Positions 28,493-28,522 of a DNA stretch of 64,000 nt are shown in pieces. The notes below the pieces were generated by a model that was not told where the DNA came from, searched no databases, and saw only the letters and a list, made by a program, of their open reading frames with translations. Each line of letters starts with the position of its first letter. The stretch's first letter is position 1. Source of the DNA: an uncultured Candidatus Saccharibacteria bacterium (GTDB lineage: Bacteria; Patescibacteriota; Minisyncoccia; Phycocordibacterales; CSBR16-119); NCBI GenBank assembly GCA_964490365.1, contig CAZBAG010000001.1:56459-120458 (forward strand), written 5' to 3'. The position numbers and the translations under genes are program-made.

Positions 28493-28522
28493 AAAAGCCC
28501 GCACCGAAGGTGCGGGCTTTTG
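28493..28522. terminator. terminator hairpin GCCCGCACC-gaag-GGTGCGGGC (copy 1 of an identical 27-nt element; copy 2 at 52321-52348)
   Basis: Perfect 9-bp stem with GAAG loop, flanked by AAAA and TTTT. Confidence 0.8.

Follow-up and report, generated by a model that had tools for sequence, protein, structure and literature searches.

Two exact copies of a 27-nt hairpin at convergent gene junctions in a Patescibacteria genome: probable bidirectional terminators

The repeated hairpin and its gene neighbourhood

The 27-nt sequence AAAGCCCGCACCGAAGGTGCGGGCTTT occurs in two exact copies in the window (by which we mean the whole 64-kb stretch of DNA that was analysed), at 28494-28520 (site 1) and 52321-52347 (site 2), which confirms the repeat that an earlier note on this DNA had reported with boundaries 1-2 nt wider. 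Both copies sit at convergent gene junctions (Table 1). On the side of the plus-strand gene, the hairpin lies 8 nt past the stop codon (TAA) of the gene for a 190-aa membrane-anchored protein at site 1, and 17 nt past the stop codon (TAG) of the gene for an SLT/CwlO-like peptidoglycan hydrolase at site 2. On the opposite side, the stop codon of the minus-strand gene is 60 nt away at site 1 and 13 nt away at site 2, so that the gap of 40-60 nt given in the earlier note holds for the first site but not for the second. The identity between the two loci ends exactly at 27 nt, and beyond it the flanks display only an A-rich low-complexity likeness, in agreement with their reported dissimilarity. 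Likewise, reuse of the sequence is not a product of chance, since none of 100 shuffles gave such a match. Both copies were furthermore recovered in independent Logan assemblies from five sequencing runs (L001-L007), which excludes an assembly artefact. Exact-protein look-ups led to no more than short Logan contigs from this same strain.

Each copy is a perfect palindrome, and outer, site-specific pairs lengthen both stems to 14 bp (including A:U pairs), of which 9 bp are G+C-rich, with a loop of 3 nt. On either strand, regions of ~56 nt around the 27-mers fold with a minimum free energy of -26.5 to -29.4 kcal/mol (z = -5.6 to -8.2). When folded by themselves, the hairpins reach -25.9 and -24.9 kcal/mol and rank second and third in stability among those of the window. 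A cUUCGg tetraloop on the minus strand was considered and rejected, because the stem would then be out of register and disrupted; the ViennaRNA prediction is a triloop. At site 1 the hairpin is flanked by AAAA upstream and TTTT downstream, which gives the U-tracts UUUUGCUUAUUAU on the plus strand and UUUUGUAUGUAUUAUUU on the minus strand. At site 2 the minus-strand tract UUUCUUCUUUUUU (UUUCUUCUUUUUUAU) is better than the weak plus-strand tract UUUCUGAUG, which offers only UUU, so that termination of the hydrolase transcript may be weak. Accordingly, a terminator scan called site 1 in both orientations and site 2 for the minus strand alone, the plus-strand tail there being too short. Thus, both copies combine the features of intrinsic terminators (a G+C-rich stem-loop, a 3' U-tract, an intergenic position near a stop codon and a structure kept at orthologous sites) with the arrangement of bidirectional ones, i.e. 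AAA(A) upstream and TTT(T) downstream between convergent genes. Judged by the stable fold, the A/T tracts and the position 8-17 nt past the stop codons, the hairpins are predicted to terminate the plus-strand genes, as had been proposed, and termination activity can be expected of both.

Such hairpins are not confined to the two sites. Of the 13 convergent junctions in the window, at least 8 have a perfect palindrome that forms a hairpin between A/T tracts, and there are 17 such hairpins in all. Two further hairpins border the 270-aa gene at site 1 (Table 1). The one downstream of it, at 28537-28562, is kept in the related loci L028 and L041 and travels with the gene in an inversion found in L027; the AT-rich one at 29478-29508 corresponds to the second breakpoint region of this inversion.

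The minus-strand genes that adjoin the two copies are GC-rich, as had been noted earlier (both 49.4% GC versus 39.0% in the window), and have the two highest GC3 values among ~79 open reading frames (mean 0.31, sd 0.07). The 270-aa protein is secreted-like, with a signal-peptide-like N-terminus that suggests export and a predicted pI of 8.7, and for its family AlphaFold gives an all-beta prediction of low confidence (pLDDT 59, pTM 0.41). The 130-aa protein is indeed acidic (pI 4.9). Searches of Pfam, PHROGs, NCBIfam and PADLOC returned nothing meaningful for the 270-aa, 130-aa and 190-aa proteins, and the 190-aa protein was absent from the records in an exact-protein look-up. Both GC-rich genes possess near-consensus promoters and similar C/A-rich leaders; the leader of the 270-aa gene is without a Shine-Dalgarno sequence. 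The far ends of the two genes (29394-29512 and 52754-52850) contain these promoters and an unrelated AT-rich hairpin, and no second 27-mer. A high GC3 was rejected as a proxy for high expression because ribosomal-protein and ATP-synthase genes have low values (0.24-0.31). Overall, GC3 and divergence are not significantly correlated (Spearman -0.08), and only the extreme GC3 class stands out.

Table 1. Genes, promoters and hairpins at the two sites (positions in the window)
Feature	Position	Strand	Remarks
190-aa membrane-anchored protein gene	27913..28485	+	AT-rich, GC3 0.25; transcript predicted to end at site-1 hairpin
27-mer, copy 1	28494..28520	.	Core of perfect palindrome 28492-28522; 14-bp stem, GAA/UUC triloop
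Second hairpin	28537..28562	-	AGAGGCGAGCC-GAAU-GGCCCGCCUCU then UCUUUUAU; predicted own terminator of the 270-aa gene
270-aa secreted protein gene	28581..29393	-	GC 49.4%, GC3 0.568
Promoter of 270-aa gene	29435..29463	-	Sigma-70-like: TTGACA, 17 nt, TATAAA
AT-rich hairpin	29478..29508	-	AAAAAATCCT...AGGATTTTTT; RmuC 3' end; other boundary of the 270-aa cassette
SLT_2/CwlO-like peptidoglycan hydrolase gene	50939..52303	+	Site-2 hairpin at 3' end
27-mer, copy 2	52321..52347	.	Core of palindrome 52319-52349; outer frame AGAAAG...CTTTCT
130-aa acidic protein gene	52361..52753	-	GC 49.4%, GC3 0.511; hairpin 13 nt past stop
Promoter of 130-aa gene	52794..52822	-	Near-consensus: TTGACA, 17 nt, TATATT, with TG; 11/12 matches

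Orthologous sites in related genomes

The closest relatives display a neighbouring-protein identity of 91% at site 2 and 72% at site 1. In every relative the orthologous gene is followed by a perfect hairpin whose stem differs in sequence, and compensatory changes have preserved the pairing at 6 of 13 consensus pairs. At site 1, related hairpins are found in L028, L041 and L027 directly after the stop codon of the orthologue of the 190-aa gene (81-85% protein identity), and GAA loops are present in three of four lineages. In L027, where the 272-aa cassette is inverted, the hairpin has nevertheless remained beside the 189-aa gene. At site 2, the sequence of the hydrolase terminator differs in every relative, while L029-L031 possess an orthologue with the same outer frame, AGAAAGCCCGC...GCGGGCTTTCT. 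For example, L029 reads AGAAAGCCCGCGCC-TCC-GGCGCGGGCTTTCT, with this outer frame, an alignable left flank and a different centre. The site-specific outer frame that each copy has in common with the orthologous hairpin of a relative (AGAAAG...CTTTCT in the case of site 2) indicates that nothing was inserted de novo, and the similar hairpins at the same spot in relatives show that the 27-mer is not an insertion scar. Each hairpin appears to be the in-place descendant of an ancestral terminator at the same position.

The same comparison bears on the GC-rich genes. In three relatives (L027, L028 and L041) the 270-aa gene is found in synteny, with a high GC3 and the same promoter, and its product evolves fast, with 50-72% identity versus 81-96% for the neighbouring proteins, in a family of six proteins. 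For the 130-aa protein a word-based homologue search found only the protein itself, and phmmer a family of only seven clusters. A homologue was recognised by reading the L036 spacer: a 117-aa gene beside L31, with 38% protein identity, equally GC-rich and with the same promoter. The promoter is thus kept in L036, and a remnant of it is still present in L040, which has lost the gene itself by deletion. This remnant, together with the homologue in L036, points to loss of the 130-aa gene rather than gain. Both GC-rich genes appear to be old, syntenic, fast-evolving residents and not recent arrivals, and their GC-richness is a trait of a class of fast-evolving, self-promoted genes, not a mark of insertion.

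Origin of the exact identity

The only unusual point about the 27-mer pair is the exact identity of its copies. A literature search for terminator repeats in Patescibacteria gave nothing pertinent. Among 990 pairs formed by 45 strong hairpins from 151 kb of the clade, true orthologues included, the next-longest shared run is 14 nt. The 21-nt core of the repeat has 10 occurrences in GTDB genomes (596 Gb, with no representative of the source species) and 9 in JGI metagenomes, i.e. in more than 1 Tb of public sequence in all; IMG/VR contained no match to it. Its public carriers are unrelated, mostly high-GC organisms with a single copy each. None of the matches in these scans contains the full 27-mer, and the core never occurs twice in one contig or public genome. 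Family constraint does not account for the exact identity.

On balance, we consider it probable that both copies are canonical bidirectional Rho-independent terminators standing in their original places, and that their identity stems from recent copying of a short tract. The first part of this reading follows from the common architecture of hairpins at convergent junctions and from arms that match those of the E. coli thr attenuator. With an A-tract on one side and a T-tract on the other, the same hairpin, with a U-run behind it, would form in transcripts of either strand. Copy 1 would end the transcript of the 190-aa gene and back up the own terminator of the 270-aa gene, while copy 2 would end the hydrolase transcript and serve as the sole terminator of the convergent 130-aa gene. 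The adjoining minus-strand gene is what a bidirectional terminator at a convergent junction entails. As to the second part, the 27-nt identity would have arisen by recent non-reciprocal copying between terminators that already shared the frame AAAGCCCGC...GCGGGCTTT, possibly by ectopic gene conversion or by template-switching during replication, the tract measuring between 9 and 27 nt. Conversion tracts of 9-27 nt with a flanking homology of 9 nt are far under the usual RecA requirement, and a close strain with the pre-conversion state was not found in our searches. A second case exists in L027, where the hairpins at 4112 and 9902, at non-orthologous sites, differ at 2 of 33 nt.

Alternatively, both terminators could have drifted independently to the same sequence while being selected for a strong stem, the design space (A-tract, GCCCGC, 3 bp, GAA/UUC loop) being narrow. 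We regard such convergence as rather unlikely, although several observations lend it some weight. The AAAGCCCGC...GCGGGCTTT frame is common to non-orthologous terminators of different genomes (site 1 in L028, site 2 in L029) and is found again in the E. coli thr attenuator. No triloop is more frequent in hairpins of the clade than GAA/TTC, and terminators with the exact 21-nt core, GAA loop included, have evolved independently in Chitinophaga tropicalis (L014) and on unrelated metagenome contigs (L020, L022). Moreover, 18 of the 27 nt were common to the two sites in the ancestral state, so that a match is required only in the 9 nt at the centre (~6 free positions), which makes convergence less improbable than the raw 27-mer implies. 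However, the other 989 hairpin pairs share 14 nt or less, orthologous hairpins diverge quickly, and site 2 would need five specific changes from an L029-like state. The near-identical, non-orthologous pair in L027 is, in addition, hard to explain by chance for a second time. These points favour templated copying between terminators in place.

We consider it very unlikely that the copies belong to a REP- or MITE-like mobile element, small and palindromic, that enters or replaces intergenic hairpins, its transposase possibly being encoded elsewhere in the genome. This would be in line with the confinement of the exact repeat to extragenic 3' ends and with hairpins of the frame CAAAAGCCCG...CGGGCTTTTG at five kinds of site in five related genomes, whose centres tend to differ from genome to genome (CACC in the window and GGCGCC in L027). 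REPs are, moreover, known to act in the 3' untranslated regions of convergent genes, according to a preprint (bioRxiv 10.64898/2026.03.23.713779). Yet the 64 kb scanned, out of a source contig of 380 kb, contain two copies, with no other half-sites and no paired (REPIN) arrangement, although further copies may exist elsewhere in the genome; the outer frame is site-specific and common with the orthologous hairpin of a relative; and the 27-mer was found in no other public genome. Neither a RAYT nor an IS200/IS605 or other transposase or recombinase was detected among ~40 window ORFs compared with Pfam and among the annotated neighbours. The REP-like dispersed element suggested by the earlier note is not supported, given two copies in the 64 kb covered and relatives that carry their hairpins in place.

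Its second suggestion, an att-like junction through which the GC-rich genes were inserted, fared no better. Here the hairpins would be recombination substrates for inserting, inverting or exchanging GC-rich cassettes, which we judge highly improbable. It is true that 8 of 9 GCCCG-frame hairpins in the fetched loci adjoin GC-rich genes (the loci having been chosen through those genes), and that the 270-aa cassette has such hairpins on both sides in L028 and L041. Similarly, the inversion in L027 comprises exactly the own terminator, the gene and the promoter (window 28528-29463), with breakpoints that abut the flanking hairpins, a deletion junction at site 2 abuts the hairpin, and divergence is far faster in the cassette proteins than in their flanks. 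Breakpoints beside hairpins are, however, expected where intergenic spacers of 95-120 nt consist mostly of hairpins. Neither an integrase nor a recombinase turned up among the window ORFs scanned, and in the window the repeat is missing from the far ends of the cassettes, which have their own promoters and terminators and occupy fixed syntenic positions. Finally, comparison of related loci revealed that the hydrolase terminator hairpins persist in loci that lack the minus-strand gene (L032, L040). What survives of the proposed association with atypical genes is the frequent position of GCCCG-frame hairpins beside GC-rich genes in the fetched loci, but these genes are not recent arrivals.

That an RNA-binding factor or RNase recognises the hairpins as a shared regulatory or stability element in the 3' untranslated regions and so co-regulates both GC-rich mRNAs is scarcely probable at all: the hairpin does read identically in the sense of both genes (…GCCCGCACC-UUC-GGUGCGGGC…), which also share near-consensus promoters and similar C/A-rich leaders, but its sequence is unconserved at either site in relatives, two copies alone give no sign of a regulon, and the own conserved terminator of the 270-aa gene precedes the 27-mer, so that most 270-aa transcripts should lack it.

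The main outcome is thus that a false lead is removed, the pair being probably one of ordinary bidirectional terminators and neither a mobile element nor an integration site. In a reduced Patescibacteria genome with almost no Shine-Dalgarno sequences, convergent junctions would seem to be systematically insulated by symmetric terminators, the sequence of which turns over fast while the structure is kept. If the identity of the two copies and the L027 pair indeed reflect templated copying, they would represent a small but concrete case of concerted evolution of regulatory hairpins and a possible route to rapid replacement of terminators. The more interesting biology may lie beside the hairpins, in GC3-rich, very fast-evolving and independently transcribed genes that hold fixed positions in conserved AT-rich neighbourhoods. 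A wider proposal, which we regard as quite improbable, is that strong terminator hairpins of this clade are repeatedly copied within a genome and may preferentially bound such fast-evolving, GC3-rich, self-promoted single-gene cassettes. If so, these palindromes would be transcriptional insulators and, at the same time, substrates for recombination (cassette inversion, deletion, allelic replacement), in a system of hairpin-bounded cassettes for which no dedicated recombinase has yet been identified.

Comparison with known systems

Integron attC sites and phage or ICE att sites resemble the arrangement described here in that a gene of atypical composition has a hairpin-forming sequence at its 3' end. 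However, attC sites are imperfect palindromes of 57-141 nt with extrahelical bases, and their cassettes are promoter-less, inserted in one orientation and located next to intI, whereas the window hairpins are perfect, 27-31 nt long, unaccompanied by an integrase, adjacent to cassettes with their own promoters and present even without a cassette. REP and REPIN sequences are likewise short repeated extragenic palindromes at gene 3' ends and can affect both 3' untranslated regions of a convergent pair, but they are imperfect, occur in tens to hundreds of copies, are often paired and have a cognate RAYT gene. By contrast, the 27-mers are two perfect and solitary copies with no RAYT in the window and with in-place orthologues in relatives.

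In naturally competent bacteria, inverted pairs of uptake sequences (DUS in Neisseria, USS in Haemophilus) double as terminators, so that an identical sequence is reused as a terminator stem at several loci of one genome, as is the case here. In the case of uptake sequences, single half-sites are present in strong excess, at about one per kb. In the 64-kb window the half-sites GCCCGCACC / GGTGCGGGC occur only inside the two hairpins, even with one mismatch allowed, and this interpretation was rejected for want of additional half-sites.

The closest likeness in sequence is to attenuators. No Rfam family matched the 27-mer hairpins above threshold, while the sub-threshold matches, on both strands, were terminator-bearing attenuators and small RNAs, with Thr_leader as the best (E = 2e-4). 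The terminator of the E. coli thr operon attenuator (Thr_leader, RF00506), AAAAAGCCCGCAC-CTGACA-GTGCGGGCTTTTT, has identical arms (AAAGCCCGCAC / GTGCGGGCTTT) and, likewise, a G+C-rich stem followed by a U-run. It differs in being a unidirectional leader attenuator with a 6-nt loop and a 9-T tail, whereas the 27-mer hairpins have a 3-nt loop and symmetric tails of 3-4 nt and are located between convergent genes. This resemblance is one of convergence and not of homology.

In function, the nearest counterpart comes from SEnd-seq in E. coli (Ju et al. 2019), where a hairpin-encoding element between convergent genes sets the 3' ends of both transcripts, as related in a preprint (bioRxiv 10.1101/2022.10.23.513370). 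The arrangement is the same as in our window, where a single hairpin between convergent genes would define the 3' ends of both transcripts. According to that preprint (bioRxiv 10.1101/2022.10.23.513370), the E. coli bidirectional class does not resemble intrinsic terminators and requires collisions of RNA polymerases. The window hairpins differ from this class in their canonical A/U tracts, with which, as far as sequence allows such a prediction, they could terminate transcription intrinsically in both directions.

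The 27-nt repeat and its two sites

The window, part of a 380,284-nt contig from a patescibacterial (CPR) genome with 39% GC, harbours the 27-mer AAAGCCCGCACCGAAGGTGCGGGCTTT in exactly two copies (site 1 and site 2; see table), which confirms the duplication reported in the earlier note and makes up the longest exact repeat of the window that is not of low complexity. Identity is limited to exactly 27 nt: the flanking base differs on either side, and only an A-rich, low-complexity likeness continues upstream. Both copies are perfect palindromes with a 3-nt loop, and with site-specific outer pairs (CAAAAG...CTTTTG at site 1, AGAAAG...CTTTCT at site 2) the stem reaches 14 bp. 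Folding energies for both strands of both copies range from -26.5 to -29.4 kcal/mol (z-scores -5.6 to -8.2), and the two hairpins rank second and third in stability among those of the window. Since both copies are found in independent Logan assemblies from five sequencing runs (L001-L007), the repeat is not an assembly artefact. Logan contigs tend to end in or beside perfect palindromic hairpins (position 1 of L041; ends of L003, L004 and L006), so that the assemblies are fragmented at the loci of interest and their comparison is limited.

Site 1 lies 8 nt past the stop codon of a plus-strand gene for a 190-aa membrane-anchored protein and 60 nt from that of a convergent gene for a 270-aa secreted protein. 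The latter has its own terminator, recognised because UCUUUUAU comes after this second hairpin on the minus strand. Site 2 lies 17 nt past the stop codon of the gene for an SLT_2/CwlO-like peptidoglycan hydrolase (SLT) and 13 nt from that of a convergent gene for a 130-aa acidic protein. The same frame recurs in a third hairpin, overlapping the start codon called for a 91-aa GIY-YIG nuclease gene; either that call may be wrong, or the hairpin may terminate the DoxX gene upstream.

Coordinates of the features discussed (relatives' contigs carry L-numbers)
Feature	Sequence	Position	Remark
Site 1	window	28494-28520	
Site 2	window	52321-52347	
Second hairpin near site 1	window	28537-28562	between site 1 and 270-aa gene
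Third same-frame hairpin	window	1625-1652	AAAAGCCCGGCAT-GA-ATGTCGGGCTTTT, one G:T pair
GIY-YIG gene	window	1636-1911	
272-aa cassette inversion	L027	9880-10870	compared with window 28486-29512
Equivalent of inverted block	window	28528-29463	
Terminator pair	L027	4112-4158, 9897-9929	consensus CAAAA[G/T]CCCGGCGCC[A/G]AAGGCGCCGGGCTTTTG
GC-rich island	L027	4100-8300	
SLT-L31 spacer	window	52304-52888	
SLT-L31 spacer	L036	8125-9346	
SLT-L31 spacer	L029	5363-5833	
SLT-L31 spacer	L034	11372-11736	
SLT-L31 spacer	L040	2514-2700	
SLT-L31 spacer	L032	11375-11431	
tRNA-Ile(GAU) gene	window	54475-54548	nested within 54375-54652
tRNA partial copy	window	~54375-54400	5'-half-like
tRNA partial copy	window	54612-54652	3' end, 85% identical
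tRNA-Ile region	L032	12890-13180	
tRNA-Ile region	L036	10745-11000	
GC3-rich class	window	28581-29393, 52361-52753, 47500-47922, 54723-56412, 63121-63528, 13565-14452, 3261-3713	first two: 270-aa and 130-aa genes
M23 locus ORFs	window	54723-55295, 55288-56412	minus strand
Tandem 12-15-nt repeats	window	5874-5971	GCAAAGAAAAAAGCTGCAAAGAAG...

Related loci and neighbouring genes

Site 1 was compared with the loci of three relatives (L027, L028, L041). L028 and L041 have the gene order of the window (methyltransferase, 190-aa gene, hairpin, the 270-aa gene's own terminator, 270-aa gene, promoter, RmuC), and directly 3' of the 190-aa stop codon stands a hairpin that reads, in the sense of that gene, AAAAGCCCGCGCAC-GAA-GTGCGCGGGCTTTT in L028 and AAAAACCCGCAAGC-TTT-GCTTGCGGGTTTTT in L041. 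In L027 the hairpin (AAAATCCCGGCGCC-GAA-GGCGCCGGGCTTTT in the same sense) remains with the 189-aa gene despite inversion of the entire 272-aa cassette of own terminator, gene and promoter. Because the hairpins come right after the 190-aa orthologues and the one in L027 is unmoved by the inversion, the site-1 hairpin belongs to the AT-rich 190-aa gene, and it has been in place since before the window, L027, L028 and L041 lineages split. The inversion affects a single gene relative to the window, L028 and L041, and its breakpoints adjoin both flanking terminator hairpins.

For the SLT protein many relatives were found. In the closest ones (L029-L031, 91% identical) the SLT stop codon is followed by the hairpin AGAAAGCCCGCGCC-TCC-GGCGCGGGCTTTCT, whose outer frame is that of site 2 and whose left flank can be aligned; its differences from the window are a single compensatory pair and the loop. 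More distant relatives carry quite different hairpins in the same place (GAGCCCTGTATC in L040, CAAAGATCCC in L036, ATCCCCGC in L032, AAATCCC in L034). The SLT terminator is present in L032 and L040, where the SLT-L31 spacer has no minus-strand gene; L040 has kept a promoter remnant of the 130-aa gene, the gene itself being gone. Beside L31, L036 encodes a 117-aa homologue of the 130-aa protein (38% identity, E = 3e-15), which matches it in promoter and in GC content (49.4%), and a full phmmer search places the family in seven clusters only. Like the hairpin, then, the 130-aa gene did not arrive by recent insertion. The spacer is a hotspot of gene-content variation across the window and its relatives. 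Its length ranges from 57 nt to 1.2 kb, and between none and three small ORFs (53/65 aa, 83 aa, 117/130 aa) lie in it on the minus strand, every one accompanied by a hairpin; the ORFs of 53 and 65 aa have the motif PIVNLKPFL in common. A deletion has evidently removed what separated the SLT terminator from the 130-aa stop codon in the window, so that the 130-aa gene would now read the SLT terminator in reverse.

The earlier note had read the repeat as a REP-like dispersed element, or as an att-like junction through which the GC-rich genes were inserted. Neither reading is supported. Relatives have orthologous hairpins, the 64 kb of the source genome that were searched contain two copies, and the ~40 window ORFs scanned and the annotated neighbours yielded no domain of a transposase, integrase or recombinase. 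Against the second reading, no second repeat copy was found at the far end of the 270-aa or 130-aa gene, the hairpin persists without a minus-strand gene (L032, L040), and the GC-rich genes have fixed positions and homologues in relatives (L027, L028, L041; L036). The half-sites GCCCGCACC and GGTGCGGGC are confined to the two hairpins in the window. In public sequence, GTDB genomes (596 Gb) gave 10 occurrences of the 21-nt core, JGI metagenomes 9 and IMG/VR none; all are solitary, come from unrelated organisms and lack the full 27-mer.

The tRNA-Ile(GAU) gene is nested between partial self-copies, an arrangement conserved in L032; L036 has instead a ~120-nt insert between tRNA 3'-end repeats (CGCGCAC plus a shared AAGTTYGTAAATWAAAACAAAT segment). 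The region looks like repeated-integration scars or a small tRNA-linked repeat module, and a permissive Rfam scan of it returned tRNA only.

As the earlier note had seen, both minus-strand neighbours are GC-rich (49.4% GC each; GC3 0.568 and 0.511); they have the top two GC3 values of ~79 ORFs (mean 0.31, sd 0.07). Any bidirectional terminator between convergent genes necessarily has a minus-strand neighbour; taking the hairpins as two picks from 13 such junctions, the chance of hitting the two most GC3-rich genes is roughly 1 in 78. The 270-aa family has six members only among 5.8 billion proteins. High GC is retained in orthologues: GC3 is 0.59, 0.51 and 0.59 in this family, most flanking genes having 0.22-0.29, and the 117-aa gene of L036 has 0.475. 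The GC-rich genes also evolve fastest. Identity to orthologues is 50-72% for the 270-aa protein against 81-96% for its neighbours, and 38% for the 130-aa protein against 87% for SLT. When the 38 window genes that have orthologues are ordered from lowest identity, the four with GC3 > 0.42 take ranks 1, 2, 3 and 5 (p ~3e-5, by counting possible rank combinations). Near-consensus promoters and C/A-rich leaders are shared by the 270-aa and 130-aa genes. The GC-rich genes form a distinct class at fixed positions and are not cargo delivered at the hairpin. Hairpins with a GCCCG frame adjoin GC-rich genes in 8 of 9 cases among the fetched loci, a biased count in that most loci were retrieved via these genes. 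Functionally, this could mean that genes with strong promoters that run against their neighbours require the strongest insulators, and the two 27-mer hairpins are indeed near the top in stability.

Of the eight genes in the wider GC3-rich class (0.40-0.57 against the mean), six are minus-strand genes in a region where the plus strand dominates. The class has C/A-rich leaders (e.g. ACCAAACC ahead of ATG) and mostly no Pfam match; members with orthologues are the most divergent window genes (31-51% identity vs ~83%). Candidate causes are recombination-linked GC-biased conversion, repeated allelic replacement, or selection. At the GC-rich M23 locus, the window has two ORFs with an 8-nt overlap, one (374 aa) for an acidic/TM part and the other (190 aa) for an M23 domain, and relatives (L032, L034, L036) have one M23 peptidase of 485-574 aa; the comparison suggests that the window gene is frameshifted or split. 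It is very divergent, with only L036 residues 44-145 aligning (37.5% identity). The GC-rich island of L027, absent from the window, adjoins the first terminator of the L027 pair; it holds a 214-aa ORF (GC3 0.68), a 613-aa helicase (GC3 0.57) and several hairpin-plus-TTGACA modules.

No Shine-Dalgarno-like motif (GGAG, GAGG, AGGA, AAGG) was found 3-18 nt upstream of any called start among ~76 window ORFs, and many genes have a TATAAT-like box 10-30 nt ahead of ATG. This suggests SD-independent initiation of translation, perhaps often leaderless or short-leader. The tandem repeats stand just ahead of a stop codon and, if translated, would form a lysine/alanine-rich (KKAAKK) low-complexity C-terminal tail.

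Source of the identity between the copies

None of 100 dinucleotide-preserving shuffles matched the repeat, and among 45 strong hairpins from 151 kb of the clade (990 pairs) the longest shared run is 27 nt for the window pair and 14 nt for the next best, so the earlier judgement that exact reuse is unlikely by chance holds. True orthologous hairpins share at most 14 nt, and family constraint does not account for the identity. The frame AAAGCCCGC...GCGGGCTTT also occurs at site 1 in L028 and at site 2 in L029 and was probably ancestral at both sites, which would leave only the central 9 nt (ACC-GAA-GGT, about six free positions) to explain. We infer that the most likely cause is a recent short-tract non-reciprocal copy between the two terminators, with the shared 9-nt arms as primer and either replication template-switching or ectopic conversion as a possible route. 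The donor was more likely site 1, where three of four lineages have the GAA loop. A second case lends partial support: in L027, the non-orthologous terminators after a DUF5671 gene (4112) and the 189-aa gene (9902) differ at 2 of 33 nt.

That the two terminators converged on one sequence seems improbable. Three public matches (L014 from Chitinophaga tropicalis, L020, L022/L026) are clearly independent A-tract/T-tract terminators, so the 21-nt core can arise by convergence, but rarely; to become identical with site 1, an L029-like site 2 would have to acquire five specific changes, and no other clade pair exceeds 14 nt.

Predicted terminator function and known counterparts

An A-tract before the stem and a T-tract after it imply a hairpin followed by a U-run from either strand; the terminator scan called both strands of site 1 and the minus strand of site 2. 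This layout is general in the window, which contains 17 perfect palindromic hairpins, and at least 8 of its 13 convergent junctions have one flanked by A/T tracts. At gathering threshold, Rfam reports two tRNAs only. A permissive scan of the hairpin region gave only sub-threshold matches, on both strands, to Thr, Leu and Trp leaders and to the MicC and STnc sRNAs (best: Thr_leader, E = 2e-4), families that all contain a Rho-independent terminator.

The earlier identification of the hairpin as a terminator is borne out by these tracts, by its position after stop codons, by the scan and by its arms, which equal those of the E. coli thr attenuator terminator, AAAAAGCCCGCAC-CTGACA-GTGCGGGCTTTTT, a sequence present in 5422 of 5426 E. 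coli genomes and annotated as the Thr leader region; for this reason the 27-mer is a textbook terminator sequence. It appears to be a bidirectional intrinsic terminator, a symmetric form of a known kind, and its exact duplication is the sole mild curiosity. In E. coli, bidirectional terminators that encode a hairpin and lie between convergent genes are well documented (bioRxiv 10.1101/2022.10.23.513370, citing Ju et al. 2019).
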